Shown here in pieces: positions 2,829-52,782 of a DNA stretch of 64,000 bases. Position numbers and translations under genes: made by a program. Below the pieces are notes generated by a model. The model did not search any database. It was not told where the DNA came from and worked only from the letters and a program-made list of their open reading frames with translations. The DNA is from Tubulanus polymorphus (lineage: Eukaryota; Animalia; Nemertea), in assembly GCF_964204645.1 (NCBI RefSeq), contig NC_134028.1, forward strand, positions 9,982,001 through 10,046,000, in the 5' to 3' direction. The number at the start of each line of letters is the position of its first letter. Within the stretch, counting starts at the first letter, position 1.

Positions 2829-2844
2829 TTATATAACTAAAAAA

Positions 2845-3279: not shown

Positions 3280-3299
3280 TTATTTAGAAAAAAAAATTA

Positions 3300-3719: not shown

Positions 3720-3743
3720 TTATTTAGTAAAATAATTATGCAT

Positions 3744-3965
3744 TTATATGGGAGGAATATATTTTTGTTTTTCTAAATAATCAATAGTTAAATTAGATAA
3801 AGTAACTGCTTATGTTAATATTAAAATATCATTTATATCAAATCTATCAACATTAACACTTCCCATTTTGAATACTTTTTTTAATACCATTGAATAACCA
3901 ACAGTTCCAACTGATAATAATGCTCCATTATATAAACCAGTTATTATCCACTTATTATCACTCAT
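3744..3965 (-). pseudogene. 73-aa small hydrophobic protein (internal stop in copy A)
   Basis: Nucleotide match to the intact ORFs 21265-21486 and 44386-44607. Confidence 0.75.
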
Positions 3966-3972
3966 TTATTAA

Positions 3973-4326: not shown

Positions 4327-4341
4327 TTATATAGTGAAAAA

Positions 4342-5079: not shown

Positions 5080-5147
5080 TATTTATAACATACAAAAATT
5101 ACCGCTCATCACTAAAAATTAATTTTAATAAAATTTTTCCTTAATAA

Positions 5148-6450: not shown

Positions 6451-9400
6451 TAACCATAAGGTAATGTTTTTATACCATCATCTAAAATATGCCTTTTATC
6501 ATCAAATGGATTCAAACTAGTTTTTTCAACTTCATTAATGTACATCTCGTGATCTTCTGATCTTAAACAATTCATTTTGTGTTTCATTACAATTGATTTA
6601 TATAAACACTTTATATAATCTTGAAATTCTATATGTTTATCAACCACATGTTTTGTTATTCCGTTTAACTTTTTAGCTTCACGATCTTTTGTTCTATAAC
6701 TATACATTTTACTTCTTATCCCAACAAATTCAATCATTTCATCACCCCCTAATTCATCTTTAAATTTACCAGGAATCTTTTTATTATCATTGCTAAATAG
6801 TTCATGATCTTTAGGATAATTGCTAAAATCAAAATGATGTTTTAATGTTTTTAAGTCTTTTGTTATGTCGTTTGTCTTGATTTCTAGTAAGTAGGCATCG
6901 GTATTTTTTGGATTAATGGGAACCCAGAATTGAATGTTCCATCATCTGTTGATAAATCATAAACATAGTCAGTTGGGTTATATATTTCAAATAAATCTTT
7001 AACTTCTTCTGTTAACTCATTTTCTACATGGCTTAAATTAAAGCAATTTGGTTTAGATTTAATCAATCCAATATTCGTATTAAATCCTAATGGACTGCAT
7101 AATATATTCAATCCTGATATAGCAACTTTTCCTTTTTGAGCTAAAGATATTGTTTTGCGGTTTTGGAAACTTTTTGAACCATCTGCAGCATAGAATCCAA
7201 TGAAGAACCATTTTCTTAAATTATTTTTTGCATTTAATACATTATCTGGAACTATCTTTTCTTTTGTTGAAGTATTACTTTTAACTATTGCATGAATATA
7301 GAATTCATCATTATATTTTATAGCAAAATCCTTAGGATTATTTACAAGTATTCTATAAACTGCTGTTGATTTCATAACATCCATGATACTAAATGTTTTA
7401 TTTGGATAAACTTCTTCACAGAATTTCTTTATTCTTTCTAATAATTTTAAGTCTTGATTGCATAAATACCAGCAATATTGAGTGCGATTAACATAATTAT
7501 ACACACCTGCTGAACCATCACCCATGAAAAATCCTTTGATAAAATATTCTTTTTCTTCCAATGTTTCGGGTTCTATATTATAAATATTATCAATTATTTC
7601 ATCAAATGACATATGATTCATTCTTTGGAAAAATCTTTTATGTAATAATTTATCTCCAATTTTTATATCAGTTGGTTTTATTTCATCGCCATTTCGTTTA
7701 ATTAAACTATGATCTTCTGTAACATCTACAAATCCTAATTTAGTTCTAACTCTATAGATTTTCTTATTTGTTTTATGTCTAATAATATTCTTTAATTTTT
7801 TCCATCCATTTCTTGTCCAAACATCCATTAATCCATTTATTTGTATTAATTCTTTTTTACCATATGAAATATAACATTCATTTTGTTTTGGAATTATTTC
7901 TGAAATTCTTCTTATCAATATTTTATCATTACATTTTAATAATATTGGGGTGTCAGCTGTTACAGAATCAACGTATAATATTTCAATATGCTTTTCCCCA
8001 AAAAGTGGTTGTAAAACATTATAACAAAAATCATACATTAATAATTTTGATACTTCTAAAACAGTTGAACCAATGAATATAGGTTTATTAAATTTCATTG
8101 ACGTTCTTTTTAATTTAACTGCGGTTAAATAATCTTCAAATCTTTTATTACCTAAATGTCTAGGACTTGATTGTAAATGTCTTAATCTTTCAGAATTATT
8201 TACTAATTCAATATCATTTCTATTTCTAATATTTTCACATGTTTTACCATAAAAACTATTATTCATTAATTTGAAGAAATCTTTTTCAAAATCTGTTTTT
8301 GATATGGTTCTCTGTTGAGTATTGAAATCTATATATTTTTCTAACCACTTCGATTGATTAAATTCAATATATCTATGTACTTTCTTTAATTTCATTCCTT
8401 GTTTTAGATGAAATTTTAACATTCTATAATGAACAATATAATTGTATTTATTATTTTGAGTAAGTATTAATTTTTCTGTAAAAACATGATATTTCGGTTT
8501 TATTTTCTTCTGGTATTCATTTAAATAACTATCATCTACAGTTAAATGTTCTGGGCAATAAGGTAAGTTTCTTGTTTTAAACTTTATATTTTCAGGTTAT
8601 TCTAAATCAACTACAAAGAAATAACCAATTGGTGCTTCATCTTCTAAACTCATAATTGCGCTTTCCCAATTAGTTTTATCATCATTTTCTGTTAATATAA
8701 AATTTTTATATGGTTTAGGTTGCATCATTGCCCAACCATATAAATTATTGGCGTCAATATATAATAATTTATATTCATCATTTGCTTTAAAATATCTATC
8801 TCCCATAACACCACTAATTCCACCTCTAATTGATTTTTCAAATAATAAAACCATATCTGGTTCTTTCAATAAATCTAATTCTACATTTGTATATTTTAAA
8901 CCACATTGCCAGGTTAAACCAGGACTAGAGTAGCAATAACAAGGATCAACATTAAAATGATTCAAATAAACTTCTCTAAATTTTTCAAATATGTCAGCCA
9001 ATATCATAACATCTGATTTTAAATATAAATCAACTAATTCACCATGATTTTTCATCTTAAAATGGCTCCAAATATTTAATGTTCTATTAAACACTTCGTC
9101 TTTCACATACTCCTCTTTTAATTGATCATAAAAATTGATCTTTTAATAATTCTGTTACATTAAAATCATTGTGTGTTTTATAAAATGAATAAGGAATTGC
9201 GCCTTTATATCTCAATAATTTAAAATCTTGGTCATTTGGATAATAATATCGAGTTATTATAAAATAATTATCAACTAAACTTTTTGATAAATTATCTAAT
9301 GAACTTGCTAGAAATCTATAAGAATCTAAAAATCTAATGCAACCAAATTGAAATGAAATATAATTTTCAGATGTTTTAGCTAATAGTTTAAAATCATATT

Positions 9401-11501
9401 TTCTTACATTTACACCATTCATAGCATTATATTCTTCTATTTCTTGATTAATTGCGCCCAATTTTCCCGATAATTGTTTTGTAAATAGATGGGTATCATA
9501 GCCTGATAAATTATGAAATAATATTGGTACGAAATTAACTTTCTTAGCTTGTAAATTACAATCTTCATGAGCAGCTCCACGATATTTTGAATTTAAATGA
9601 TCATGATCTCTAACTTTTTTATCAAATGAATAAAAACGTTTTTCACAATAACAACAAAGAGTTGCATAATTAAAATCAATTTCATCTTCTTTTGTCATAA
9701 CTATTCTTTTATTTTTGTTTAATAATTTTGCAAAATCACTTTCTAATTCAATCATTTAATCACAAAAAATCATTAACTACATTTTCACCTCTAAAAGAAA
9801 TATATTGACTTTCATATAATTCAGGATAATTTGATTTTATATAAATTCCATAAGCAGCAGCTCTTTGATGAACTTTTTTAATTGTATTTATAATTGGTGG
9901 GTCTTGTATTGTGTCTTCATTTAATTCATTTCCTTTATCCATTGATTTTAATAATTGCTTTTTGTTATATATTTCTTTTCTATCTTGATCAGTTAATTCT
10001 TTATTCAACGATTCAAAATCCCCATAAATTACAAATGGAACAATATTCTTAAATTTATGATTAGTAAATTTCAATTTATAATCTTTTTCTGTTGGCATTA
10101 TTAATTTACAAAAATCTTTATTATCACATAATTCTTTATGTTTTAATAATGTATTCTCAGTTATAAATTTAGATAAACATTTCCTACATAGATAAATTTT
10201 ATGATGATGATCACTTTCTGTTCTAAAGAATAAATCAATTTGTTTTAACCACATATAATGTTCATTTTCATCTTTTTTATAATATAACAAATCTATAGCA
10301 TTTTCATCATCATAATATTCTGTTAAATATAAAGCTTCCAATGTATAATCTTTAATATTTTCACCTTTTGTCTTTGGTAATTGCATTAATTCGAATACAT
10401 TTAATTTTAAATTATTAACTTTTTCTATTTTAGAAATCATTTTTATAGTTACCGGATATTGATCAATTTTATATAATGTTTCATATTTCCGGTAATTTGT
10501 TATTCTACAAACATTTTCCTGTGTTGGATGTAAGCAACTGATAATTGACCATAGAAAACATTTATTATCTTCATTTTGAATATTTATTACTGCTTTTGTT
10601 GTAAATGGTAATTTAAGATGATGCTTTAATATCCTTTTCTGTTGTAAAGTTTGAATCATTTTTAAACATTTTATTATTTTTTGATGTTTTATTCCTTTTT
10701 GTATTATAAACATTTAAATCTAAATATATAATTTCATTCAATGTTAAGCCAGAACCCTCAAAATATCTTTCTTCAATATGACGTTTAAATTCATTAAATA
10801 TTTTTTCGAACTTCTCTTTTATTTGTGTTTTTGAAATTATTTCTTCAGAGTGTGTTTGAATATTATAATTCATTTTTTCTTCTGACTTTATAAAACTTAC
10901 TTTCCCAGAGATACTTATTTTTGGATATTCAACATCTGTTATCAAATCTAGTATTTTTTCTATTATTTCATTAAATGTACTATAATCTTCTATTGTTGTA
11001 CCTTTAAAAAATCTAAATATAATAGCTGCAGGACCAATTTTACTATGTAATGTTTCTAAAAATTTCAATTGTACCTTTTATTTCTAGTGAATCAATATAA
11101 TTTCTAACATTTTCCATGTAAGGTTTATTTGAAATGGATTTAGTTTTTGAAGTTGGTTTTTTTACTTTTTGAGGTTTATCGTCAAAATAATCTTTTCCTA
11201 AAACATTATTACTCAAATTTTGATGGTGTTTTTGTGATTCGAGATGTCTATTATAATTCCTTTTTACTATAAATTCATTACAAACTTCACATTTTATTTC
11301 ATCCACATTCATATTTTCTAATCGTTCTTTTCTTTCATTGGAATTTTCTGGAGTTTCAAAATCTATTACATTTTTTATATGATTTGATGATTTTTCATAT
11401 TTAGATTTATTAGATTTATCGATGTATTTTTTACAATATTGGCAATAATATTGATTTTTATTAACATTATTATTTTCTGGCATGTGTTCATTCTCCCCCA
11501 T
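6447..11501 (-). pseudogene. pPolB: Protein-primed family B DNA polymerase with intein (copy A, frameshifted)
   Basis: ExoI IYGDFES, ExoII FHNLSGYD, FLDSYRF, ExoIII YLKSDV, RGG, motif A YIDANNLYG, motif B KLMNNSFYGK, split motif C YVD/TD, KMY. Confidence 0.95.
6903..7966 (-). mobile_element. Intein with LAGLIDADG homing endonuclease in pPolB motif C (copy A)
   Basis: Block A SVTADTPIL, block B VDVTEDHSL, block C FIKGFFMGDGS, block E FFIGFYAADGS, block F YVYDLST. The terminal N|TD is restored by one missing nucleotide in an A-run. Confidence 0.93.
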
Positions 11502-11514
11502 TTATTAGGAAAAA

Positions 11515-11586
11515 AAATTACTTGTGGTGATGAGTGGTGTCTCGTACTCTCGTACTCTGATCTGAAACCCACATCTTCCAATTACT
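11515..11586 (-). repeat. Terminal inverted repeat of Polinton copy A
   Basis: Near-identical to the copy B termini at 13643 and 30463; starts with 5'-AG as Polintons do. Confidence 0.9.
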
Positions 11587-13642: not shown

Positions 13643-13712
13643 AGTAATTGGAAGATGTGGGTTTCAGATGAAAGGGCGAGAGGGCGAGACACCACTCATC
13701 ACCACAAGTAAT
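13643..13712 (+). repeat. Left TIR of copy B
   Basis: agtaattggaagatgtgggtttcagat...gagacaccactcatcaccacaag; inverse of 30396-30463. Confidence 0.9.
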
Positions 13713-13727
13713 TTTTTTTCCTAATAA

Positions 13728-16700
13728 ATGGGGGAGAATGAACACCAACCAGAAAATAATAATGTTAATAAAAATCAATATTATTGCACATATTGTAAAA
13801 GATACATCGATACATCTCATAAAACACGACATGAAAAAACTGCAAATCATATAAAAAATGTAATAGATTTTTAAACTCCAGAAAATTCCAATGAAAGAAA
13901 TGAAAGATTAGAAAATATGAATGTGGATGAAATAAAATGTGAAGTTTGTATTGAATTTATAGTAAAAAGGAATTATATTAGACATCTCGAATCACAAAAA
14001 CACCATCAAAATTTGAGTAATAATGTTTTAGGAAAAGATTATTTTGATGATAAACCTCAAAAAGTAAAAAAAAAACCAACTTCAAAAACTAAATCCATTT
14101 CAAATAAACCTTACATGGAAAATGTTAGAAATTATATTGATTCACTAGAAATAAAAGATACAATTGAAATTTTAGAAACATTACATAGTAAAATTGGTCC
14201 TGCAGCTATTATATTTAGATTTTTTAAAGGTACAACAATAGAAGATTATAGTAAATTTAATGAAATAATAGAAAAAATACTAGATTTGATAACAGATGTT
14301 GAATATCCAAAAATTAGAATCTCTGGGAAAGTAAGTTTTATAAAGTCAGAAGAAAAATGAATTATAATATTCAAACACTTTCTGAAGAAATAATTTCAAA
14401 AACACAAATAAAAGAGAAGTTCGAAAAAATATTTAATGAATTTAAACGTCATATTGAAGAAAGGTATTTTGAGGGTTCTGACTTAACATTGAACGAAATT
14501 ATATATTTAGATTTAAATGTTTATAATACAAAAAGGAATAAAACATCAAAAAGTAATAAATTGTTTAAAGATAATTCAAACTTTACAACAGAAAAGGATA
14601 TTAAAGCATCATCTTATATTAAATTACCATTTACAACAAAAGCAGTAATAAATGTTCAAAATGAAGATAATAAATGTTTTCTATGGTCAATTATTAGTTG
14701 CTTACATCCAACACAGGAAAATGTTTGTAGAATAACAGATTATCGGAAATATGAAACATTATATAGAATTGATCAATATCCAGTAACTATAAAAATGATT
14801 CCTAAAATAGAAAAAGTTAATAATTTAAAAATAAATATTAAAGATTATACATTGGAAGCTTTATATTTAACAGAATATTATGATGATGAAAATGCTATAG
14901 ATTTGTTATATTATAAAAAAGATGAAAATGAACATTATATGTGGTTAAAACAAATTGATTTACTCTTTAGAACAGAAAGTGATCATCATCGTAAAAATTT
15001 ATCTATGCAGAAAATGTTTATCTAAATTTATGACTGAGAATACATTATTAAAACATAAAGAATTATGTGATAATAAAGATTTTTGTAAATTAATAATGCC
15101 AACAAAAAAGATTGTAAGTTGAAATTTACTAATCATAAATTTAAGAATATTGTTCCATTTGTAATTTATGGGGATTTCGAATCGTTGAATAAAGAATTAA
15201 CTGATCAAGATAGAAAAGAAATATATAACAAAAAGCAATTATTAAAATCAATGGATAAAGGAAATGAATTAAATGAAGACACAACACAAGACCCACCAAT
15301 TATAAATACAATTAAAAAAGTTCACCAAAGAGCTGCTGCTTATGGAATTTACATTAAATCAAATTATCCTGAATTATATGAAAGTCAATATATTTCTTTT
15401 AGAGGTGAAAATGTAGTTAATGCTTTTTGTAACAAAATGATTGAATTAGAAAGTGATTTTGCAAAATTATTAAACAAAAATAAAAGAATAGTTATGACAA
15501 AAGAAGATGAAATTGATTTTAATTATGCAACTCATTGTTTTTATTGTGAAAAACGTTTTTATTCATTTGATAAAAAAGTTAGAGATCATGATCATTTAAA
15601 TTCATAAATATCGTGGAGCTGCTCATGAAGATTGCAATTTACAAGCTAAGAAAGTTAATTTCGTACCAATATTATTTCATAATTTATCAGGCTATGATAC
15701 CCATCTATTTATAAAACAATTATCGGCAAAATTTGGCGCAATTAATCAAGAAATGGGAGAATATTATGCTATGAATGGTGTAAATGTAAGAAAATATGAT
15801 TTTAAACTATTAGCTAAAACATCTGAAAATTATATTTCATTTCAATTTGGTTGCATTAGATTTTTAGATTCTTATAGATTTCTAGCAAGTTCATTAGATA
15901 ATTTATCAAAAAGTTTAGTTGATAATGATGTTGTTATAACTCGATATTATTATCCAAATGAACAAGATTTTAAATTATTGAGATAGAAAGGTGCAATTCC
16001 TTATTCATTTTATAAAACACACAATGATTTTAATGTAACAGAATTATTAAAAGATCAATTTTATGATCAATTAAAAGAGGAGTATGTGAAAGATGAAGTG
16101 TTTAATGGAACATTAAATATTTGGAACCATTTTAAGATGAAAAATCATGTTGAATTAGTTGATTTATATTTAAAATCAGATGTTATGATATTGGCTGACA
16201 TATTTGAAAAATTTAGAGAAGTTAATTTGAATCATTTCAATGTTGATCCTTGTTATTGTTATTCAAGTCCTTGTTTAACCTGGCAATGTGGTTTAAAATA
16301 TACAAATGTAGAATTGGATTTATTAAAAGAACCGGACATGGTTTTATTATTTGAAAAATCAATTAGAGGTGGAATTAGTGTTATGGGAGATAGATATTTT
16401 AAAGCAAATGGTGAATATAAATTATTATATATTGACGCTAATAATTTACATGGTTGGGCAATGATGCAACCTCAACCATATAAAAATTTTATATTAACAG
16501 AAGTTGAAAATGATGATAAAACTAATTGGGAAAGCGCAATTATGAGTTTAGAAGATGAAGCACCAATTGGTTATTTCTTTGTAGTTGATTTAGAATATCC
16601 TGAAAATATAAAGTTTAAAACAAGAAACTTACCTTATTGCCCAGAACATTTAACTGTAGATGATAGTTATTTAAGTGAATACCAGAAGAAAATAAAACCG

Positions 16701-18749
16701 AAAGATCATGTTTTTACAGAAAAATTAATACTTACTCAAAATAATAAATACAATTATATTGTTCATTATAGAATGTTAAAATTTCATCTAAAACAAAGAA
16801 TGAAATTAAAGAAAGTACATAGATATATTGAATTTAATCAATCGAAGTGGTTAGAAAAATACATAGATTTCAATACTCAACAGAGAACCATATCAAAAAC
16901 AGATTTCGAAAAAGATTTTTTTAAATTAATGAACAATAGTTTTTATGGTAAAACATGTGAAAATATTAGAAATAGAAATGATATTGAATTAGTAAATAAT
17001 TCTGAACGATTAAGGCATTTACAATCAAGCCCTAGACATTTAGGAAATAAAAGATTCGAAGATTATTTAGCAGCAGTTCAATTAAAAAGAACGTCAATGA
17101 AATTTAATAAACCTATATTCATTGGTTCAACTGTTTTAGAAGTATCCAAATTATTAATGTATGATTTTTATTATAATGTTTTACAACCACTTTTTGGGGA
17201 AAAGCATATTGAAATATTATATTTTGATTCTGTAACAGCTGACACCCCAATATTATTAAAATGTAATGATAACATATTGATAAGAAGAATTTCAGAAATA
17301 ATTCCAAAACAAAATGAATGGTGAGATTTCATATGGTGAAATAAAATTAATACAAATAAATGGATAAATGGATGTATGGACAAGAAATGGATGGATAAAA
17401 TTAAAGAATATTATTAGGCATAAAACAAATAAGAAAATCTATAGAGTTAGAACTAAATTAGGGTTCGTTGATGTTACAGAAGATCATAGTTTAATTAAAC
17501 GAAATGGCGATGAAATAAAACCAACTGATATAAAAATTGGAGACGAATTATTACATAAAAGATTTTTCCAAAGAATGAATCATATGTCATTTGATGAAAT
17601 AATTGATAATATTTATAACATAGAACCCGAAACATAAGCAGAAAAAGAATATTTTATCAAAGGATTTGTCATGGGAGATGGTTCAGCAGGTGTGTATAAA
17701 TATGTTTGGGGTAATAAATATTGTTGGTATTTATGCAATCAAGATTTGATATTATTAGAAAGAATAAAGAAATATTGTGAAGAAGTTTATCCAAATAAAA
17801 CATTTAAAATCATGGATGTTATGAAATCATCAGCAGTTTATAGAATACTTGTAAATAATCCAAAAGATTTTGCTATAAAATATAATGATGAATTCTATAT
17901 TCATGCAATAGTGAAAAGTAATACTTCAACAAAAGAAAAGATAGTTCCAGATTATGTATTAAATGCAAAAAATAATTTAAGAAAATGGTTCTTCATTGGA
18001 TTCTATGCAGCAGATGGTGCTAAACAATTTACAAAGGATAAAACGATAACCTTTGCACAGAAAGGAAAAGTTGCTATATCAGGGTTAAATATATTATGTA
18101 ATTCATTAGGCTTCAATATGAATATTGGATTTATTAAATCTAAACCAAATTGTTTTAATCTAAGCCACACAGAAAAAGATTTAACTGAAGAAGTTAAAGA
18201 TTTATTTGAAATACATAACCCATCAGATTATGTTTATGATTTATCAACTGAAGATGGTACAATTAACAGTGGATTTCCATTAATTTGCTTCAATACTGAC
18301 AGTTACATACTAAAAATCAAGACAAATGACATAACGAAAGACTTAAAAACATTAAAACATCATTTTGATTTTAGCAATTATCCCAAAGATCATGAACTAT
18401 TTAGCAATGATAATAAAAAGATTCGTGGTAAGTTTAAAGATGAATTAGGGGGTGATGAAATGATTGAATTTGTTGGGATAAGAAGTAAAATGTATAGTTA
18501 TAGAACAAAAGATCATGAAGCTAAAAAGTTAAAAGGAATAACAAAACATGTGGTTGATAAACATATAGAATTTCAAGATTATATAAAGGTTTATATAAAT
18601 CAATTGTAATGAAACACAAAATGAATTGTTTAAGATCAGAAGATCACGAGATGTACATTAATGAAGTTGGAAAAACTAGTTTGAATCCATTTGATGATAA
18701 AAGGCATATTTTAGATGATGGTATAAAAACATTACCTTATGGTCATTAA
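13728..18749 (+). pseudogene. pPolB: Protein-primed PolB with N-terminal zinc fingers, vOTU-like and EndoVII-like domains, and intein (copy B, disrupted)
   Basis: Same Exo/Pol motifs as copy A; DNKCFLWS...HYMW; CFYC...RDHDH...YRGAAHEDCN; YFD-[intein]-TDS. Confidence 0.95.
17229..18294 (+). mobile_element. Intein with LAGLIDADG homing endonuclease (copy B, disrupted)
   Basis: YFD|SVTADTP...VTEDH...GFVMGDGS...GFYAADG...YVYDLST...FPLICFN|TDS; excision restores YFDTDS. Confidence 0.95.
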
Positions 18750-20062
18750 AACATAAAATCAATATCATCATACTCGAAATCACTATTGGCTTCTTCATTT
18801 TCATTTAATTGTTTAGGTTCTTCTTCCATTTCATTTTCTCATTTAAATAAAGTTCTATCTTGTTCCACATTTCATCTCGCTCTCTTTGTTTCTTTTTGTT
18901 TGTTAATTCATCAAATGGAATTATAATATCTATGTTTAAATAATTTACAATCTTATTTAAAAATAATTCATAATTTATTGAATCTGTTATTCTATTTCCC
19001 AAATGATACATTAATATTTGTTTGAATATTTTTTAAAATATTTTTCATATCTTCTTCTGTTAATTTAGGTTTTTCATAATAATCGTTAAATAATAAATAT
19101 AAATACATTTTCTTTTGTTTTGTGTTAAATGTTGATGGAATAATTGTTTTTATAATATCTTTTTTAGTTATTTCACCATTTTTATTTTCTATTATTTTCA
19201 TTTTTTCAAGCCATTGCATATATTCTGGTGTATGATCTTCTATAGAAAATATTTTAAAAATTTCATCTAGATAATTCAATTTTGGATCTGTGAGAAAATT
19301 TCTAGTTTTTTCTTCACCCAAAAAATTCTTTTGCCATCCACATTCATTACAAAATAACACAGTACCTTCTTGTCTTAAGGTCGCATAACTACATTGTGGA
19401 CATTTTCGTTTATGATTTATTGGTAATAGATCTTAACTAAGCTCTTGGTATTTTCTTACGTTTTCTTTATGTTTTATTGTTCTATTATGTAGATTTGAAT
19501 TACTTGTTGTAATAATCAATTTACAATATTTACAATAATATGTTTTTCTTGTTAATTCATTATATTGTTTTTCTAACTTTTCAACTGTTTCTTTATTATC
19601 TGGTAACGTTTTCTCATATTTTATTTTTTCTAATAAATTATTTTTTCTTTCATTGAATTCAGTTTCAAATTTATTAGAAATTTTATCTATATGTGCTTTA
19701 CGAAATTGATGATTTTCCCAATCTTCTATATTTTCAGGGCTATATTTTACTTGACAAGGCTCACAGATATGATCTTTTATATTATCCTTATCATAGAATA
19801 AGAAAGGTCTTTTCCAAATAACTTCAGGTTCAACTTCAGCAGAATTACTATTACTTTCATTACTATCAACATTAGCCGTTGTGTCGTTAATTTTACACTT
19901 CTCTGAATGTTTTTTAACATAATTTCTTGAGAATAATTTATTACATTTTGGGCAGTTTAGTTTAGGGGGTTTATAATTTTCTTCATGTTTTTTCATATGT
20001 CGAGCCATATAACTTTTTCTTAGAAGTTCACCACAAATTTCGCATGCTATCTTCTCATCCAT
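18746..20062 (-). pseudogene. C2H2 zinc-finger / VLTF3-like fusion (copy B, disrupted)
   Basis: ORF 19433-20062 (four CxxC..H fingers) continues past a GAA>TAA stop into the zinc-ribbon/VLTF3-like part. Its stop overlaps the pPolB stop (TTAA). Confidence 0.65.
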
Positions 20063-20130
20063 TTATTAAGGAAAAATTTTATTAAAATTAATTTTTAGTG
20101 ATGAGCGGTAATTTTTTTATGTTATAAATA
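20063..20130. promoter_or_regulatory. Divergent promoter region between the ZnF-VLTF3 gene and penton
   Basis: T-run then TAAATG on the minus strand; T-run then TAAATAATG on the plus strand; conserved in copy A (5080-5150). Confidence 0.55.
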
Positions 20131-20890
20131 ATGGTAGAATTAAAAGAATACAGAATATTTGTTGATTCTAGAAAACTTACAAATCATAAATCTTATAATT
20201 TACTAGTACAATTAGATAGAGAATTCAAGAATTGTGTTGATTTAAAATTAGTAAATATAAGTTTATGTAATTCTTTTTATAATATATCAGATAAAACTAT
20301 TGAAGATAATACTGTTTTAATTCATATTAGAAATGTAGATAAATGGTTTCATCTAATTTTAAAACCAGGATTATATAATTTAGAAACATTAGCTCAAGAA
20401 AGTAATAGAAGAGCACGGTTGAAAATTAGAAGTGAAGATAAATTTTTAATTAGATTTATAAAAAATGATAGCACAAATAAAATTAAAATAAAGTTACATG
20501 ATGAAAGTCAACATGCATTTATGGTAAAAAAAAACCCATAGCTAAACTGTTAGGAATAGTACCAGATACTGTTACAGGAAACGTAGATGGTAATTCAAAT
20601 ATAATACCTTTTACACACTTTTATATTTATTGCAATTTAATCGAGCCTACAAAAACTTTCGAAGCAACTAAAGATACAATTTGTAATTCTAGTATATTAA
20701 ATATTTTACCATTAAAAATGTTAAACAATTTGGAACGCAAATAACTTATAATTTAGCTGAATGTGATTTTAAACCTTGTATTCCTCAATTTCATAATTTT
20801 GAATTAGAAATAAGAAATCACAATGGATACTTAATTGATTTGAATAACTTTCCTGTAATTTATGAGTTAGTTATAAGATGTAAAGAGTAA
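20131..20890 (+). pseudogene. Minor capsid protein (penton), frameshifted
   Basis: Homologue of 4342-5079; frameshift in the A-run near 20530. Confidence 0.8.
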
Positions 20891-20906
20891 TTTTTTCACT
20901 ATATAA

Positions 20907-21264
20907 ATGAATATAACTGTTGGGCCGAGTATATGTTTTGGGTTTGATTTTAAACATGAGAAAGAAATGAAATTTAACATTAATGATGTAATTACACATA
21001 TCAAAAATATTACATTTTCTAATGAAACAACATTTGAGTATGAAAAAACAATAGATAAAGAAACTTTTAATGTAGAAAAGATTACTAATTTAATTAGAGA
21101 ATCTTTAAGATTTTATGAATTAGATGAAGATTTTATCATCGATGATATTAAAAAAAATAATAATTGAAATATATACAAATGAAACTAGTAATGAAATAAA
21201 TGTTGATTTAATCATCACTAAGATAACTAAATATTTTGATGATAGTAATTTTTTTGATAAATAA
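20907..21264 (+). pseudogene. ~118-aa hypothetical protein, frameshifted
   Basis: Matches the intact ORF 44029-44385. Confidence 0.75.
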
Positions 21265-21486
21265 ATGAGTGATAATAAGTGGATAATGACTGGATTATAT
21301 AATGGCGCATTACTATCAGTTGGAACAGTTGGTTATTCAATGGTATTAAAAAAAGTATTCAAAATGGGAAGTGTTAATGTTGATAGATTTGATATAAATG
21401 ATATCTTAAAATTAACGTTAGCAGTAACTTTATCTAATTTAACTATTGATTATTTAGAAAAACAAAAATATATTCCTCCCATATAA
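21265..21486 (+). CDS. 73-aa small hydrophobic (membrane) protein
   Basis: Intact and conserved in three copies; two hydrophobic stretches. Confidence 0.75.
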   Translation: MSDNKWIMTGLYNGALLSVGTVGYSMVLKKVFKMGSVNVDRFDINDILKLTLAVTLSNLTIDYLEKQKYIPPI

Positions 21487-21510
21487 ATGCGTAATTATTT
21501 TACTAAATAA

Positions 21511-21949
21511 ATGGCTTCTGCAGTTATAACTATTATAGGATCAGCAATTGTTAACGCTTTAGCATTTACTGGTGGTGGATATTTATTTAAACATATTGAT
21601 AAAAATGGATCATTAACAGAACAAAAAAGACTTAAGCATTAGAGAATATAATAAAGCATTAGAGAAATATAATTAAGCAGCAGAAGAATATAGAGAAAAG
21701 AGGCAAAACTATATGGATTATATTAACAAGGAATTATATGATCAGAAGATTTCACATAGAGATTTTCAATCAGTTGATGATGCAATGAGTTTATATAACG
21801 CGGTAACAAATAAAGAAAAATTACATCTACATAAACCTACAATATCAGATTATTATACCCCAAGTAATGAACAGAAGAAATATGAAATGATATGGATTTT
21901 AGGCGGAACTGTTATTGTTATATTTGTAGCATATAGATTTACTAATTAG
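21511..21949 (+). pseudogene. 139-aa membrane protein homologue, disrupted
   Basis: Matches 3300-3719; small local duplication near 21635-21675. Confidence 0.75.
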
Positions 21950-21969
21950 TAATTTTTTTTGCTAAATAA

Positions 21970-22405
21970 ATGGAAGATAAAGTAGTTGATAATATTGATA
22001 TTATTCCTCATGATATAAATAAAACTAAATTAAAAATATATTTAGAAAAACAAATATTAGAATTTGAAAGTGATTAAAAGTTAAAAAGAAAAAATATTTA
22101 AAATCTAAAATTATATATTATTTGATTATAAGTGGTTCGGTTACAATTAGTTCTGTAATAACATTTTTAGCAATATTCAGTCCATTAACACCTTTAGCTA
22201 TATCAATTGGTGTGTTAGGATTAAGTTCAAGTGTTTTAACTGGTATAAGTTCAAAATTGAATATAAAAAGTAATAAAGAAAAATTAAAACTAATATAAAA
22301 GAAATTAATAAATTAAAGAATACACTAGATTATATAATAAGTTTAAATGGTCATATAACAGTTGAAGAACAAGATAAATTATAAAAAGAATTAATAAATT
22401 ATTAA
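21970..22405 (+). pseudogene. 144-aa two-TM protein homologue, disrupted
   Basis: Matches 2845-3279 with stops/frameshifts. Confidence 0.75.
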
Positions 22406-22421
22406 TTTTTTAGTTATATAA

Positions 22422-23747
22422 ATGGTAGATAGTTTTCCAAAAGCTTTCCAATATAATAAATCAATTAAATATAATATTCCAGCAATAGATTTTAATAAAG
22501 ATATTACATATAGAAATGAAGTTTTAAATTCATTAATTGATTTATATATTTATGTTACTGAAAGTAATAATTTTCATGTTAAGATGGAAAATATATTTCA
22601 TGTGTATACAATTAATTTCAAAAATTTAAATGAGGCAAAACAGTGGTTATTAAAATCTAATATGAAGAATTGGCAGAACCAATTAAATTTTGCTGTTTAT
22701 TGCGCAACAAGAGGATGTGGAATTAGTTGGAATGATCATTTAAACAAACCAAGTTTACCATTGATGTTATCACTTTTTAGATTTCATACATATTTTCAAA
22801 TAAAATTAATATTAGATGAATTAGAATGTCCTTTACCAGGTTCAAAATATTTTAAAGAATTGAATAATAATGTTAATTCTTCTAAGTTTTATGAAATATG
22901 TAATGAATTTAATATTAATTCAAATAATGATTTTAGAGCAAAAATTGGAACAATGGGTGGATTAGGAATATTGTATACTAAAGAATTTGGAAAAATAATG
23001 ACAAATTCAGATATAAGAACACTAAATTGGAATGAATTACCAAAATATTATAATAATATACAACAAGAAAACAATAATGGTTGGGTTAGTTTCATTTTAG
23101 AAAATAGTGAAGGTTTTACAAAATCAGGTATACAAAGAATAAATCAATCTATTAGAACTTATTTGATATGTATTCTAGGTGCGCAAGTTGAAACAAGATC
23201 CCCAATAATTGGAAATGATAACACTTCATTTGATGCGCAGAAACAATTCAAAGTATTATTTGAAGATTCCATTCATAATGATAAAAATAGATCGATTCCA
23301 GAAAACATAGTTAGGTACCAAAATTATTTAGATAAATCACATATTAGATTAAATTATTGTATAGGCCCTAATCTATTTATTATTTCTAATGATTTAGTAT
23401 TAAAGATGGGAAATATAATTGGTTATAATAATCTAATTAAAACTGCAACAATAAATAATTCATTTGGGTTAAATGATATAAATAAAAAGATTATCACTGC
23501 TCCAAAATTAATGGAAGGTGAAAAAAATAAAAAACATATTCAATCAACTGAAACTAAAACTAAAAATATTAAATTAAATAATGATTCCAAAATAAAAGAT
23601 TACAATACTACAGAAAATATTAAAACTGATAATATTCAACATGATATAATCAAACTAAATGATGATAATAAATCCCATGAAAATACTAAATTAGCTTTAA
23701 CTTGTATAGGAATTGTTATAGGAGGAATATTATATTTTAAATTTTAA
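22422..23747 (+). CDS. 441-aa conserved element protein with C-terminal TM anchor (function unknown)
   Basis: Intact ORF; WQNQLNFAVYCATxGCGISW and RINQSIRTYLICILGAQ are conserved in all copies. Confidence 0.85.
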   Translation: MVDSFPKAFQYNKSIKYNIPAIDFNKDITYRNEVLNSLIDLYIYVTESNNFHVKMENIFHVYTINFKNLNEAKQWLLKSNMKNWQNQLNFAVYCATRGCGISWNDHLNKPSLPLMLSLFRFHTYFQIKLILDELECPLPGSKYFKELNNNVNSSKFYEICNEFNINSNNDFRAKIGTMGGLGILYTKEFGKIMTNSDIRTLNWNELPKYYNNIQQENNNGWVSFILENSEGFTKSGIQRINQSIRTYLICILGAQVETRSPIIGNDNTSFDAQKQFKVLFEDSIHNDKNRSIPENIVRYQNYLDKSHIRLNYCIGPNLFIISNDLVLKMGNIIGYNNLIKTATINNSFGLNDINKKIITAPKLMEGEKNKKHIQSTETKTKNIKLNNDSKIKDYNTTENIKTDNIQHDIIKLNDDNKSHENTKLALTCIGIVIGGILYFKF

Positions 23748-23763
23748 TTTTTTTATTATATAA

Positions 23764-25209
23764 ATGGATGTAGAAGATTATGAAATGGAAGGCATGGGAA
23801 ATAATGATGATGCCAATACTAACAATGATGATTATATGACTGCTGATACTAATATTGATGATGATAATGATACAACATATAATTCTAATTTAGCAGATAG
23901 TGGTTCTAAAGGCCAATCAACAGATGAATTTGATAGAAGAACTAGATCGAGAATAAATCCTGAAAATGAAAATCAAGGTTTAGTAAAGAAAAATTTAGAA
24001 TATAATGGATATATTTATAATTTCAAACCTATATTTGAAAAATCTGGATATAATATAAATGCCAGAGGCGCCAGACTTTTAGTACAAGAATTAAAATCTT
24101 TAGATGGTGAATATTATTATCGTTTGAAAGATGATTATTATATTGATATCTCTTATAAAAAACAAGACAAAATATTAGCAGAATCAACTTTGCTTAAGTT
24201 AGACCTATCTAGAATTAAAAGAATAAGAAATAGTAATGAAATAGAAGATGTAACACAAGAAGAAATAAATCAAAATGAAAGAGTATTTAAACAAAGAATT
24301 AATGAATTATTTAAAACAATCGATAATAATTTAGAAACAGAAACAACTTCTGAACAGAATATAACTTCCAAAACTAGTAAACTTAAATCAAATAAAGTTC
24401 CAATTGAAAAACTTTTACCAAATGGATTACTTGATGCAACAGATCAAGAATTAGAAGATTTAGATATATTTTCTGATAAAGCAATTAGAGAAATTATTAG
24501 TATAAGACTTGCATCTGATAAAATTGCACATGATAAAAGTATAAGAGATTTTAAAATTAGATTTTTAGAAAAAGAATTAACTAATGCAAATGAAGAAATA
24601 GAACAATTAAAGTCTGATTTAGATCATCAGGTAATTGATGAAATAGAATATAGGCAAAAAGAATTACGTTTAGAAAAAGAAATTGATAATTTAAAAGATA
24701 ATTTAGAAGTACAAAAAGGTGAAAGAGATATATTATTAAAAGAATTTGGTAATAATTTTAAAAGATTAAAAGATGTTTTTAAAAGATATCTAATAAAACC
24801 AGATTCTAAAATATCATTGAAAGATAGAATAAAATTATTATTTAAGTTTGAAGGAATAACAATTCTTTCAATTCTAACAGCAGTAACTATGTTATTTACA
24901 ACAATTGGTTTAGCAATATCAAATACTTTAAAAACTACTCCTACTCCAAATAAACCGGATAAGCCCCCAGGTAATAATTCTATACAAGATAAAGTTAAAG
25001 ATGGTTTAAAGAAATTAGCAAAATATTTATGGGAACTATCTAAAAGATCTGCTGCAGCATTGCCAGGAGTTATTGCATCAATTGTTGGTTTTATATTGAA
25101 ATCTGCAGGAAACATTATTAACTTTGCTGCTGAACATATTATTTTATTTTCAATTACAGTTGTAAGTGCAATTATTTTTGGGTTAGTGAATATGATAAAA
25201 AATAAATAA
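23764..25209 (+). CDS. 481-aa acidic/coiled-coil protein with C-terminal TM helices
   Basis: Intact ORF with a heptad-rich middle and three hydrophobic segments at the C-terminus. Confidence 0.85.
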   Translation: MDVEDYEMEGMGNNDDANTNNDDYMTADTNIDDDNDTTYNSNLADSGSKGQSTDEFDRRTRSRINPENENQGLVKKNLEYNGYIYNFKPIFEKSGYNINARGARLLVQELKSLDGEYYYRLKDDYYIDISYKKQDKILAESTLLKLDLSRIKRIRNSNEIEDVTQEEINQNERVFKQRINELFKTIDNNLETETTSEQNITSKTSKLKSNKVPIEKLLPNGLLDATDQELEDLDIFSDKAIREIISIRLASDKIAHDKSIRDFKIRFLEKELTNANEEIEQLKSDLDHQVIDEIEYRQKELRLEKEIDNLKDNLEVQKGERDILLKEFGNNFKRLKDVFKRYLIKPDSKISLKDRIKLLFKFEGITILSILTAVTMLFTTIGLAISNTLKTTPTPNKPDKPPGNNSIQDKVKDGLKKLAKYLWELSKRSAAALPGVIASIVGFILKSAGNIINFAAEHIILFSITVVSAIIFGLVNMIKNK

Positions 25210-25229
25210 TTAATTTTTTTGTTAAATAA

Positions 25230-26477
25230 ATGAGTGGGATTTATATAAGTCCTTCTAAGATTTCTAGAATATCTAATGCTATTAAAGCAGAAAGATCACA
25301 TCATATAATTACTCATAATCTTTCAAATATTAATCCCGATGAAACTTTGTATGTTAGAATTCCTAGATTAACACAAAATACTTTTTATGTTCCAAATAGT
25401 ATTTATTTATCAGCCGATATAAAAGTAACTGGTAATAATAATAATTATGTTGTTGATAATGTTGGAAGATATTTGATTAAAAAATTAACTATAAAGATTG
25501 GTCCAGAAACAGTTTTCTCATTAGATGATTATAATTTATTTATGCATTATAAAGATTTATGGTTAACTAAAGAAAATAGAAATAATATGATATTTCAGGG
25601 TATTAAATCGGAAAACCATAATAAATTAAGATCTGAAGCCAATAATGCAGTAGTAACTAATGCTGTAGATAATTTGATAAAAAAGATTTATGGAAGCAAA
25701 TATAAAATTCCATTAGACTTTGAATTGATAAATAATAATGCACCTTTATATAAATACGCAATTCAAGAAGATATTATATTTGAGATAACATTTGCTCTTG
25801 TAAATGAAATTGTATAATCTAGCGTTGTTAAAGATATGGGTTATAAATTATCAAATATATGTTTAGAATATGACACAGTAACTAATGAAAATATTGCTAG
25901 CACAATTCAAACTCAATACAATCAAGGATTTTCATTATTATATGATTATATTGATAAATTTAAAACTGTAACTATTAATGCAAATGATGAAATTATTAAT
26001 GAGAATATTAACTTCCCAAGGAGATCTATTAAAGGTATATTAATATTTTTTACCATTGCAACATATACTAATGGCGCAATAAATGTTGATAATTATTATA
26101 ATCCTGAAATAACAAAAGTAGAAATAACTATCGAAGGAATAGCAAATAAAATATTTTGTCAAGGAATGAGAATGATAGATCAGTGTCCAGAAATTAGAAA
26201 ACATTTTATGAATGAAAAAGTGAAATCATCTGAAAATTGTAACATTAATCAAATTGATTATTATACCGGTAATAAATATGCATTATGGTTAGATTTTAGA
26301 ACAACAGAGGATAATTCATTACATGGTTCTGGGAAAAAACTACAGAACACTAAAGATGGAATACAATTATTCATGGCGAAGAAAAGAGGAGACAAAAATT
26401 TCAAAATGCACATTTATATTATATCTGACGCACAATTAAATATTGTAAATTCACAATTAGATAGTATTCAATATTAG
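25230..26477 (+). pseudogene. Major capsid protein (double jelly-roll), one in-frame stop at 25815-25817
   Basis: ~415 aa; NVGRYLIKKLTIKIG resembles the DJR-MCP signature; YKIPLDF, LSNICLEYD, IFFT and ALWLDF beta strands; located next to integrase/ATPase. Confidence 0.8.
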
Positions 26478-26507
26478 AAATATAAAGTTAAAATTAAGGA
26501 TATATAA

Positions 26508-27635
26508 ATGGGCGGTAAAAAAAACTCCTAATACTAAAGATCAATATTTAAGAAATTTATATTACAACCCTGAGAGTTCGGTTGCTTATTCTTCTACTAA
26601 AAATATATGGCGTCAAGTAAAACAAGATAAATTAGATAAGATAATCCCACAAAATTTAGTTAAATATAAAGATATAAATGAATTTATGTTAGAACAACAA
26701 CATACACAACACATAAAAAAATTGTTAGAAAATATAAAACTCGTAAAACTATAGTAAGTTATGTAGATCAACAGTGGCAAGGAGATTTAATTGATATGAA
26801 AATGTTAAGAAAGATAATGATGATTATTGGTGGTTATTGAATATAATTGATATTTTTAGTCGTTATGTATGGAGCTTCCCACTTTATAGAAAAGATGCTG
26901 TACAAACATCAAATGTTTTAAGAAAATTTCTTTCGGATGATAAACTAAAACCAGAAAAAAATACAATTTGATGATGGAAAAGAATTTGATAATTCACTTG
27001 TTCATGTACTCTTAGGCAATCATAATATTAAATATTTTTCAACAAAATCAAATAAAAAAGCAGCAGTTGTTGAACGATTTAATAGAACATTAAGAACAAG
27101 AATGTGGAAATATTTTACAGCAAATAATACTACTAAATGGATTGATGTTTTACCAAAATTGATAGAAGGATATAATAATTCTTATCATTCTTCTATTGGA
27201 ATGAAACCTATTGATGCTAGAAAACCTGAAAATGCTGAAATTGTTTGGAATAATTTATATGGAGCATTTCTTGTAGATGAATTTGGTGAACCTAAATTTA
27301 AAGTTGGTCAAAATGTTAGAATTTCTAAGTATAAAAAGATATTTGACAAAGGATACGATCGAAATTTTACTAGGGAAATATATAAAATAAAAAAGGTAAT
27401 AACAACAAAACCATATGTCTATAAATTAGAAGATTTAGATGGTGAAGAAGTTGATGGCTACTTTTACGAAGAAGAATTAAGTTTAACTACTGAAAATCTA
27501 GAACAAGAATATAAAATTGAAAAAGTATTAAAAACAAAAACTGTTAAAAGAAAAAAATATTCTTTAGTAAAATGGGTTGGATGGCCAGATAAATTTAATG
27601 AATGGATATTATCAAGTAAAATTAAAAATATATAA
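26508..27635 (+). pseudogene. int: Retroviral-like (rve) integrase with C-terminal chromodomain, frameshifted
   Basis: QQWQGDLIDM, IDIFSRY, IQFDDGKEF, KAAVVERFNRTL, YNNSYHSSIGMKP; chromodomain YKIEKVL...LVKWVGWPDKFNEW. Confidence 0.93.
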
Positions 27636-28244
27636 ATGAATAAGGAATTATTTATATTTGAACCTCATAATATGTTAATTTCTGGTGTAACAAATTGTGG
27701 AAAAACTTATTTTATATTAAATTTATTAGAAACTGTTTATAAAAACTATTTTGATAATATAGTATTATTTTGTCCAACATATGAATTTAATCAAACTTAT
27801 GACAGAAATATTACTAGAAATAATAAATTTATTATATTAGATCCTAAAACAGTAAAAGAAAATTTAGATAATTGTATAAAAATAGCAATTGATATTTATA
27901 AAGGATCAAATACATTATTTATCATAGATGATTGCGCAAATTTACATGATTCAAAAGTTAGAGAAAGTGAGTTATGTTATTTAGCTTTCTCTGGAAGACA
28001 TTTTGGGATAACAACATGGGTTTTAAATCAAAAATATAATTCAATTGTTAAAGACTTTAGGGAGAATATAAGATTTTTAGTATTATTCTACAATAAAGAT
28101 AGAAAATCGATGAAAAATGCGCTTGAGGAAAATGATGTTATTCCACATGATTTACATTATGAATATATGGATAAATTGAAAAATAATAAAAGATCAAAAT
28201 TACTATTTAGATTACAACACCCATTTAAATATGAATTTATTTAA
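27636..28244 (+). CDS. A32/FtsK-like DNA packaging ATPase
   Basis: Walker A GVTNCGKT, Walker B LFIIDD, arginine finger GRH, TWVLNQ. Confidence 0.93.
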   Translation: MNKELFIFEPHNMLISGVTNCGKTYFILNLLETVYKNYFDNIVLFCPTYEFNQTYDRNITRNNKFIILDPKTVKENLDNCIKIAIDIYKGSNTLFIIDDCANLHDSKVRESELCYLAFSGRHFGITTWVLNQKYNSIVKDFRENIRFLVLFYNKDRKSMKNALEENDVIPHDLHYEYMDKLKNNKRSKLLFRLQHPFKYEFI

Positions 28245-28246
28245 AT

Positions 28247-28520
28247 TCAACTGGCTTGTTAATCTAGTTGAATTCTAGTTACATTCTAGTTGAATTCTAG
28301 TTATTGGTAGTTGTAACAAAAATCAACTAGATTTAACAATATTTTAACTAGCTGGTTAATCTAGTTTAATTCTAGTTACATTCTAGTTGAATTCTAGTTG
28401 TTAGTAGTTGAAACAAAAATCAACTAGATTTAACATGAAATAAACAAGAACAACAATATTTCAACTAGCTTGTTAATCTAGTAGAATTCTAGTTACATTC
28501 TAGTTGAATTCTAGTTGCAA
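28247..28520. repeat. Intergenic CTAG-rich repeat array (three ~55-bp blocks)
   Basis: ttaatctagttgaattctagttacattctagttgaattctagtt occurs three times, separated by aacaaaaatcaactagatttaaca. Confidence 0.85.
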
Positions 28521-28548
28521 CATCACAACTAATTTTTTTGTTATATAA

Positions 28549-29158
28549 ATGGTAGGTGAAAAGAAAGTAAAATCTAAAAATGTATGGTGATGTTCCAATT
28601 GAAAAAACTTTAGATGATTTAGGAATAACAGAAAACAAATTAATTCCAGATGATGGTGCTTTAAATAATGTTACAACAAATAATAATTATGAATATTATC
28701 TTTACTGTAAACATCAATTAGAAATATTAATAGCATCTGGAAAATGTAAAAATTTTTTCGGTAAAAATTTAACTTATAATGAATTAAACACAATGAAATC
28801 AGATGAAATTATTAGATTATTTAAGATTTATGAAGCCGCGAGAACAGCTAGAATTAATGACGCGATATCAGAAAATGTAGTAAAAGGTTATAGTAAATTA
28901 TGTAATTATATACTACCAATTGAAGATGAAAATAGATTATATTCCGATTTAAAAAATGACTATTTAGTTATGACTGAATTAAATAAATGGATTGGATATT
29001 TATCATTTCAATTAGGCGGATTTATGACATTATTATCAACTGGGGTTATAACATTTTCAAATATTGAAAGTAAAAATATTTCTATAATAAATGAGCGAGG
29101 TGGAAGAAGTGAAGGAATTAACTGTGAAGAAAAAACCGAGATCACAGAAACAAATTGA
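28549..29158 (+). pseudogene. ~200-aa conserved element protein (LYSDLKNDYLV family), 5' frameshift
   Basis: Homologue of the intact ORF 53135-53737; TAAATG start at 28549. Confidence 0.75.
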
Positions 29159-29459
29159 ATGGTCTCGGCAATTAGGAATTAAATCACAAGAATATAAAAA
29201 AGCTGTAAAAGGAAAAATAAGTAATAAAAATGTTAATAAAAATGGTGAAAATATTGTTATTTCTACTACTTCTGATAATAGAATATTTGATAAATATTTA
29301 TATTTTACAGTTGGATTTGTAATTGTATTCATTTTGATTGGGTGTAATTGGTATAAGAAATCAAATAAAATTCATGATATTAATAATTCTGAAACAACTG
29401 CTATTAAAAATGAAAATACTTCTGAAATTCCAAAATTGACAATAAAAAAAATGGATTAA
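29091..29459 (+). CDS. 122-aa basic single-TM protein
   Basis: KKPRSQKQIEWSRQLG motif and TM segment shared with 52783-53142. Confidence 0.75.
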   Translation: MSEVEEVKELTVKKKPRSQKQIEWSRQLGIKSQEYKKAVKGKISNKNVNKNGENIVISTTSDNRIFDKYLYFTVGFVIVFILIGCNWYKKSNKIHDINNSETTAIKNENTSEIPKLTIKKMD

Positions 29460-29868
29460 TATTTTAGAAAAAAAGCAAAAAAAATAATTGAATATCTCAC
29501 TACTTTCGTCTATCACTGTATGGGTGCCGTTTATGGCACCATCTATGCGGAGCAATTAAATTGTCCAGATAAGTCATTTCGGATTCTAGATATTCATTAT
29601 TTTTATTAATTTATTTTGTTTTTTTAATTTGAAGTTTTTACTTGAATATTGTATTACAGTCGTTTCTTATTATTAGTTTTTTCTTAAATTGAAAGATGGC
29701 AGCACTGGGCGGGGTGTGATGCTGAAATGAATATTTGAATTTGAATTTGTTAATCAATTAACATGGTAATCGATTACTAATTTGATTAAAAATTATATCA
29801 TAATTAAGTTAAAAATCCATAATTCATTTATCAGTTTTCATTCTTATATTCTTTTCATTCGGAATAAT

Positions 29869-30081
29869 TTATAAAAATACTTTAAATTCTCGTGTACTAA
29901 CATTACAGTTGCTTAAATTCGCTGATACTTTCTCTCCATATTTAGTTTTTATCTTTTCTAATTTCAATATTTTATATTCAATTTCTTTTGTAACATCAAC
30001 TAACTTTTTTATTTCGAATTGTTTTTTTGCTGGTTTTATTCTGTTATTTATTGTTGCTAAGAATGCTTTTCTATCTCCCAT
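29869..30081 (-). pseudogene. Small TKYG-motif protein (possible OB-fold), 3' decayed
   Basis: TAAATG start; KKL...YKI...TKYGEKV...FKVFL resembles the ORF at 42887-43239. Confidence 0.55.
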
Positions 30082-30395
30082 TTATAACGAAAACAAATTA
30101 CTTGTGGTGATGAGTGGGGATTACTTCCCCCTGTATATAACAAACACGCTATTAACCGTTCTCACCCAAGCCTCACAGCATCTATTTATCCGGGCACTGT
30201 TGACACGCAATCACTGTACTACTACAGTAATAGCACACGCGTTAATAACCGTTCTCAGTAGAGACTCACTGTATCGATCTATCCACGCGCAGATGTTGTT
30301 ACGCGCACTCACTGTATATGTGTATCACAGAGCAATCGTCCGTTCTCACTAGAGCCTAGCTGTGATGAGTGGTGTCCCATACTCAATTGAATTAT

Positions 30396-30463
30396 TGCTT
30401 GTGGTGATGAGTGGTGTCTCGCCCTCTCGCCCTCTGATCTGAAAGCCCACTTTTCCAATTACT
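30396..30463 (-). repeat. Right TIR of copy B
   Basis: cttgtggtgatgagtggtgtctcgccctctcgccctctgatctgaaagcccacttttccaattact is the inverse of 13643-13712 with several mismatches. Confidence 0.9.
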
Positions 30464-52776: not shown

Positions 52777-52782
52777 CTTCTT

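Follow-up and report, generated by a model that had tools for sequence, protein, structure and literature searches.

We describe a lineage of animal Polintons in which a TAAATG motif overlaps the start codon of nearly every gene. The lineage is represented in the nemertean Tubulanus polymorphus by three related elements, A, B and C, which self-comparison delimits within a 64,000-nucleotide stretch of DNA (hereafter the window; NCBI RefSeq assembly GCF_964204645.1, contig NC_134028.1, positions 9,982,001 to 10,046,000 of the forward strand). All three are decayed Polintons (Mavericks), each with a full or partial set of genes for a protein-primed DNA polymerase B (pPolB), an integrase, an A32 ATPase and a jelly-roll capsid protein. 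The motif is a genuine feature, conserved within and specific to one clade, and it is built like a poxvirus late promoter. On balance, we favor the reading that these Polintons carry poxvirus-type late promoters and, in virophage fashion, depend for transcription on the RNA polymerase that a poxvirus-type helper brings into the same cell. The initial annotation had likewise proposed that a polymerase of poxvirus or nucleocytoplasmic large DNA virus type, instead of host Pol II, would transcribe these genes.

TAAATG marks gene starts throughout the window. The initial annotation listed 21 start codons supplied by this hexamer, and all 21 are confirmed, each with an ATG at its coordinate. Across both strands of copy B, TAAATG is found at 14/15 gene starts vs 37/670 other ATGs (Fisher p 3.7e-16); the sole exception, at 20131, reads TAAATAATG. 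The longer pattern (a T-run of at least 4, a gap of 4-9 nucleotides and TAAATG) is present at 11/15 starts vs 4/670 other ATGs. When only TAAATG sites are compared, a T5 run lies upstream of 9/14 starts vs 1/37 non-starts (p 5.9e-6). The upstream register is fixed: TAA occupies -19 to -17 and T's fill -16 to -10, with A at -4 in 15/15. The copy B test has a degree of circularity, since the 15 starts were picked with the motif already known; the tests on relatives have none. Two starts, 26508 and 28549, open reading frames of just 7 and 13 codons, their genes being disrupted immediately downstream, and the intact relatives L001 and L003 place gene starts at both positions by homology.

The form of the upstream element varies. 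A T-run had been thought usual before TAAATG, which holds for 11/14 listed sites of copy B but fails at the listed sites from 42887 to 54775, where only 1/7 has one and an A-run, then T, usually replaces it. What the listed sites have in common upstream is a T at -12 (19/21). Counted against the same pattern read backwards, the full pattern scores 15 to 0 in copy A, 15 to 1 in copy B, 9 to 1 in copy C and 2 to 0 in the host flanks. The ratio is 39 to 2 for the window copies together, 41 to 5 for clade loci and 8 to 10 for AT-rich outgroups.

TAAATG starts are specific to one clade of capsid relatives. An alignment of 52 capsid proteins yielded 83 loci (L001-L083), taking in the best 80 of 211 metagenome matches. 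Among mechanically called open reading frame (ORF) starts of the 15 closest loci, TAAATG stands at 49/55, vs a background of 94/2188; it also stands at 18/21 ORF starts in the seven clade loci with a GC content of at least 30%. Outside the clade, the counts are 0/20 in sister loci, 3/282 in the remaining loci and 1/44 in AT-rich outgroup loci. When starts are matched between near-full-length orthologues of eight core genes, TAAATG is found at 31/36 in the clade vs 1/185 in other Polintons, and T at -12 at 32/36 vs 73/185. The motif is thus enriched over both the AT-rich background and other Polinton families. Position -3 is a purine in 143/185 outgroup starts and T in 32/36 clade starts, with G at +4 in 25/36 of the latter.

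The carriers of TAAATG form a single clade of 14 rows in the capsid tree (SH-aLRT, the Shimodaira–Hasegawa-like approximate likelihood ratio test, 99; quick search), which holds 70 rows after 14 of the 83 loci were dropped as broken or short. The start of the major capsid protein (MCP) gene is TAAATG in 13/14 clade rows, L013 reading TGAATG. The motif has been maintained despite capsid identities of 50-77%, GC contents of 20-44% and rearranged genes, and the genes that carry it include those for the polymerase, the integrase and the capsid. As the clade has one evolutionary origin, its loci are not independent events.

The clade motif matches published descriptions of vaccinia late promoters. 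These are described as having TAAAT over the start codon, in most cases with G as the next base, and, among other T's, a conserved T at the 10th upstream nucleotide (PMC11980589), or as T residues, 5-7 bp and TAAAT(G/A) (PMC5294985). The clade has TAAATG over the start codon and a T peak at -12/-13, that is, 9-10 nucleotides upstream of TAAAT (T at -12 in 25/27 and 19/23), so that the likeness to the vaccinia promoter drawn in the initial annotation is upheld. In a fish virus, the salmon gill poxvirus, TAAATG is marked at conserved genes (PMC4542343). Slippage at the TAAAT initiator gives rise to 5' poly(A) leaders (PMC6211774), and a leader made in this way would explain why T at -3 is combined with G at +4.

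Promoters of the intermediate class, which the A-run variant resembles, have an AT- or A-rich core 15-19 nucleotides upstream, constant for each gene, and no late T element. Starts with an A-run mostly retain T at -12/-13. A strict split of the starts into late and intermediate classes is not established: the A-run form is stable in the ATPase gene (7/7) and in genes of the 49908 type, and flips between orthologues for the MCP and penton genes. The poxvirus early terminator TTTTTNT occurs in coding sequence 12 times vs 37 expected in the clade and 28 vs 39 in the outgroup, a comparison confounded by homopolymer avoidance (mirror 0.66, A7 runs 0.44).

Compact gene packing does not account for the motif. 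It could be a by-product of such packing if it arose from stop-start overlap (TAA-ATG), or from an upstream U-rich element followed by an AATAAA poly(A) signal. A direct TAA-ATG junction is present at 2/12 tandem junctions measured, AATAAATG makes up 21/50 clade starts, and the TAA at -19 is often the stop codon of the upstream gene. However, the TAA of TAAATG is the upstream stop in only 1/50 clade starts, and neither source explains the motif. First and divergent genes, which have nothing upstream, carry it too (13728, 20062, 20131 and 30081), it is absent directly behind 5/6 gene ends examined (the sixth precedes the integrase start), and equally compact outgroup Polintons lack it. The packing explanation is thus largely refuted, and we consider it very improbable.

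Transcription by host Pol II in the nucleus would require a core promoter or initiator peculiar to the element and a very short leader, perhaps with the help of a factor that the element encodes; the poxvirus likeness would then be convergent. Such elements do integrate, and the family is very high-copy in host DNA (17,058 contig records from one sequencing run); TATAAAT is a canonical TATA box, and several element ORFs have no assigned function. A TATA box, however, normally lies 25-30 nucleotides upstream of the transcription start (PMC5294985), and acting at that distance it cannot serve an ATG that overlaps it; protein N-termini align to precisely that ATG. The T at -3 in the clade, where other Polintons have a purine, also speaks against Pol II, as do the 112 AATAAA on coding strands in 20.5 kb. 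Among the window and clade ORFs scanned, there was no match to an RNA polymerase, a capping enzyme or a transcription factor, TBP and TFIIB included. We therefore think a Pol II origin of the pattern decidedly unlikely.

The window contains most of the Polinton hallmarks sought: protein-primed PolB, rve integrase, terminal inverted repeats (TIRs), double jelly-roll MCP and A32 ATPase. Its three copies and the features of copy B are as follows.

1..11586, minus strand: copy A, inverted relative to B and 92% identical to it, cut at the window edge, with the same promoter sites
13643..30463: copy B, with 70-bp TIRs at both ends
30464..~55400: copy C, right end approximate, PolB interrupted, TAAATG starts, many with an A-run upstream; in order, PolB remnant (30464-30936), insertion (30937-40730), remaining PolB, capsid block (plus strand) and ATPase/integrase/HNH block (minus strand)
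13643..13712, plus strand: left TIR of B, beginning AGTA and ending where the PolB promoter begins; 92% inverted match to 30394-30463
13709..13730, plus strand: promoter-like site before pPolB, TAA-T8-spacer-TAAATG
13728..18749, plus strand: pPolB, split into several ORFs by stops and frameshifts
17229..18294, plus strand: intein with LAGLIDADG endonuclease in PolB motif C, ends approximate, broken in B
18992..20062, minus strand: zinc-finger gene (Pfam zf-U1, zf-C2H2), broken; TAAATG start at 20062
20063..20130: region between two divergent genes, with a GTGATGAGYGG box and two promoter-like sites placed back to back
20131..20890, plus strand: probable minor capsid (penton) gene, so identified from its position, broken; start TAAATAATG; weak DUF5901 match on copies A and C
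20907..21264, plus strand: gene of ~118 amino acids (aa), broken; TAAATG start
21265..21486, plus strand: conserved 73-aa Polinton gene; TAAATG start
21511..21949, plus strand: conserved 139-aa Polinton gene, broken; TAAATG start
21970..22405, plus strand: gene of 144 aa, broken, encoding a hydrophobic stretch; TAAATG start
22422..23747, plus strand: conserved 441-aa Polinton gene; TAAATG start
23764..25209, plus strand: conserved 481-aa Polinton gene; TAAATG start
25230..26477, plus strand: double jelly-roll MCP gene, broken in B and near-intact in C (48626-49858); TAAATG start
26508..27635, plus strand: chromodomain-bearing rve integrase, broken (matches to Pfam rve and Chromo come from copy C and L003); TAAATG start
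27636..28244, plus strand: A32-type packaging ATPase, intact (Pfam Pox_A32, E 3.6e-13); TAAATG start with an A-run upstream
28549..29158, plus strand: conserved gene of ~200 aa, broken near its start; TAAATG start
29091..29459, plus strand: 122-aa gene; TAAATG start
29869..30081, minus strand: truncated gene, TAAATG start; its promoter adjoins an internal copy of the inner TIR segment
30394..30463, minus strand: right TIR of B, adjoining the PolB remnant of copy C

Gene identities rest on domain matches, homologues and structure prediction. Fragments of the copy A pPolB match Pfam zf-U1, Endonuclease_7 and DNA_pol_B_2, the matches being weak and below cut-off; the protein has thousands of homologues, of which the close ones are Polinton-type and some are annotated PF03175. 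The AlphaFold model of the MCP (pLDDT 87.6) matches the MCPs of the chlorella virus PBCV-1 and an iridovirus in Foldseek (E 1e-17). Several unknown genes are common to copy B and outgroup Polinton loci. An adenain maturation protease found no match among the scanned window and clade ORFs, which did not extend to every reading frame. A search of IMG/VR for MCP and ATPase relatives returned none.

The proposed cycle begins in an infected cell, where element DNA would reach the cytoplasmic factory. There the post-replicative machinery of the helper would read the T element and initiate in the AAA of TAAAT, if events follow vaccinia biology in both steps. Through slippage, the polymerase would give the mRNA a 5' poly(A) leader, and the unfavorable T at -3 would be replaced there by A. 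The element could then replicate with its own pPolB, be packaged in its own capsid and re-integrate with its own integrase; it would be silent when the helper is absent. The window copies are broken and incapable of this cycle alone.

The PolB intein has relatives in giant viruses and in at least one phage-like carrier. All three copies contain a LAGLIDADG intein in pPolB motif C (17229-18294 in B; 6914-7966, minus strand, in A; ~41260-42330 in C), recognized on copy A by Pfam LAGLIDADG_3 and Intein_splicing and NCBIfam intein_Nterm. Full-length relatives with 31-41% identity are found in giant-virus PolBs at the same motif (YGD/TDS), and an intein follows YGD in 113 of the best 150 representatives, mostly large RNA-primed PolBs. 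The two closest Polinton PolBs that reach motif C have no intein, nor was one detected in loci L001-L083. On sequence comparison, the intein is a recent cross-class acquisition, and its relatives suggest contact with a large DNA virus. Clade member L003 also encodes a deoxynucleoside kinase (10340-10981, minus strand; Pfam dNK, E 1.7e-31) with its own T-run TAAATG start; a homologue search identified no donor for it. Intein and kinase together would fit a life beside a large DNA virus.

That virus might not be a poxvirus. An undescribed relative of the pox-, asfu- or egoviruses, or another nucleocytovirus, could have a late promoter that happens to consist of a T element and TAAAT, and the elements would borrow its cytoplasmic polymerase in the same way. 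The giant-virus affinity of the intein favors such a helper, and TAAATG is found above chance in giant-virus loci (34/226 starts; n=38 loci). The late promoter of African swine fever virus (ASFV) is likewise bipartite, with an upstream TATTT, and a TAAAN initiator with slippage is present in yeast cytoplasmic virus-like elements. However, the invariant core of the clade motif is TAAATG and not the TATATA of ASFV, and TATAAATG is found at only 19/50 clade starts. Giant-virus TAAATG starts also lack the T element: of the 27 distinct ones, one has a T-run upstream and 13 have T at -12. Pattern and backward control number 78/74, 84/106, 109/69 and 135/121 in four giant-virus bins, an excess of at most 1.6-fold, and the bin with the closest intein has no excess (78 vs 74). 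We regard a non-poxvirus helper as unlikely, though less so than Pol II.

Several observations weigh against a poxvirus-type helper. The match was judged from published consensus descriptions. Giant viruses themselves have TAAATG at 15% of starts, a mild preference. Clade coding sequence shows no depletion of AATAAA (observed/expected 0.97 and 0.82), although most outgroups behave likewise (0.99), so that this measure does not discriminate. The placeable intein relatives are giant-virus bins and P0338, a polymerase whose best solved matches are of a type that we take to be phage; none has been shown to be poxviral, which counts against naming the helper, and the intein tree singled out no donor. 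The ORFs scanned in the window and clade loci include no poxvirus-derived gene. When IMG/VR was scanned for exact copies of the long motif, 35 scattered matches came up, mostly off ORF starts, and no helper candidate.

Promoter sharing with a helper is known from virophages. The mavirus gene set includes pPolB and an rve integrase. The helper late promoter is described upstream of all mavirus genes and of 12 Sputnik genes (PMC6723459). Like these virophages, the window family is an integrating, capsid-encoding element with pPolB, an rve integrase, no RNA polymerase detected and one late-type promoter before essentially all genes. Unlike them, it has a Polinton-type capsid, an animal host and the poxvirus-type TAAATG in place of the TCTA of Cafeteria roenbergensis virus (CroV) or the mimivirus late motif, and its helper is predicted only. 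Gezel-14T (PgVV), a Polinton-like virus (PLV), is described as depending on a large virus with which it shares a promoter motif; the shared motif is the early AAAATTGA of the helper, it serves a few genes and the host is an alga (10.1101/2022.07.28.501842).

Association of PLVs with poxviruses is also known. AHEV_PLV1/2 and CBEV_PLV1 occur in entomopoxvirus occlusion bodies and were proposed to be poxvirus hyperparasites, a tie to poxviruses made by co-occurrence (Barth et al. 2024, PMC11296320). These PLVs measure ~12 kb and have a cysteine protease and a phospholipase, and AHEV_PLV1 is without an rve integrase (PMC11296320). Compared with them by description only, the window element is longer (~17 kb) and has an rve integrase and no protease detected. 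In the main text of that paper the words "promoter" and "TAAAT" are absent, and one supplement likewise has no promoter analysis (PMC11296320).

The window family has the promoter architecture of one group and the gene content of another. It shares with vaccinia late promoters a TAAATG placed over the start codon and a T 9-10 nucleotides upstream among flanking T's, and its A-run variant resembles the intermediate class (PMC11980589, PMC5294985, PMC12917281). Unlike in vaccinia, the predicted promoter serves nearly every gene, the polymerase gene included, in an element with no RNA polymerase of its own detected. The pPolB, rve integrase, packaging ATPase, double jelly-roll capsid and TIRs are those of animal Polintons or Mavericks, as given for "adintoviruses" (PMC8502044). 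The sampled outgroup Polintons have a purine at -3 and no TAAATG; the window family also has an intein in PolB, and no adenain protease was detected among the ORFs scanned. In the text available to us, the word "promoter" is absent from the adintovirus paper (PMC8502044), a coral polintovirus paper, an egovirus preprint and a 2026 preprint on mosaicism. Our literature search, which took in few subscription journals, found no report of TAAATG promoters in Polintons and no paper that joins helper-promoter sharing with poxvirus-associated PLVs. Each of the two phenomena is known on its own.

How animal Polintons are expressed and mobilized is a long-standing question, and most are known as genome sequences only. 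A clade with a poxvirus late promoter on nearly every gene makes helper dependence cheaply and directly testable. If the poxvirus-type helper is real, an unknown poxvirus is predicted in hosts of the clade, and the provirophage model drawn from mavirus, which may include an antiviral role, would extend from protists to animals. More tentatively, and with somewhat less than even confidence, we suggest that the whole clade of integrase-bearing animal Polintons may be endogenous virophages of an undiscovered poxvirus lineage, with both late- and intermediate-type promoters. The start-codon context across Polinton clades would then be a barcode of the large virus that each parasitizes (TAAATG here, TATATA-ATG in others).

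Outgroup Polintons have start contexts of their own. Among L050, L052, L070, L073, L014 and L055, some show TATATA-ATG or TATA-rich starts that resemble the ASFV late initiator, and others TATAAAAA-ATG; the TATATA-ATG contexts could be a second helper-linked promoter code. Five GC-rich outgroup loci (L018, L041, L042, L049 and L076) have a common TCTAAAACG box upstream of the MCP start. TCTA is the CroV late motif; the TCTAAAACG boxes, however, lie at orthologous sites. Close homologues of the MCP (54%, P0046) and PolB (60%, P0189) are filed under Bartonella sp. assemblies, probably as co-sequenced eukaryote DNA.

The elements in the window have been extensively altered. Their GC content is 22-25%, vs ~35% in the flanks, and most window genes are interrupted by stops or frameshifts. 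The Harbinger-type and GIY-YIG-bearing repeats that flank them point to an animal host. A 6-bp target-site duplication is a Polinton feature; none was found at copy B, whose two flanks differ. Its right end adjoins the PolB of another element, which makes a later rearrangement likely. The ~10-kb insertion in the PolB of copy C (30937-40730) has inverted ends of ~255 bp and shows what looks like a 4-bp duplication (TAAA); inside it are a tandem duplication of 360 bp (33404-34124) and a repeat that bears GIY-YIG. A long palindrome at 55400-55525 lies at the probable right end of copy C and is preceded by GGGGCGAG, as in the TIRs.

Short repeats recur at characteristic places. Between the ATPase and the next gene of B, 28246-28516 holds three 97-bp repeats of TTCTAGTT/AACTAG units, and repeats of another kind occupy the corresponding position in copy C (50729-51165). 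The 11-bp GTGATGAGYGG box is found at 5112, 11527, 13702, 20098, 30107, 30362 and 30404, in TIRs, in the subterminal region and at the divergent promoter in the center; it is possibly a binding site or the trace of an old terminus. The host flank at 58450-60756 contains a Harbinger-type transposase (DDE_Tnp_4) paired with a Myb/SANT gene.

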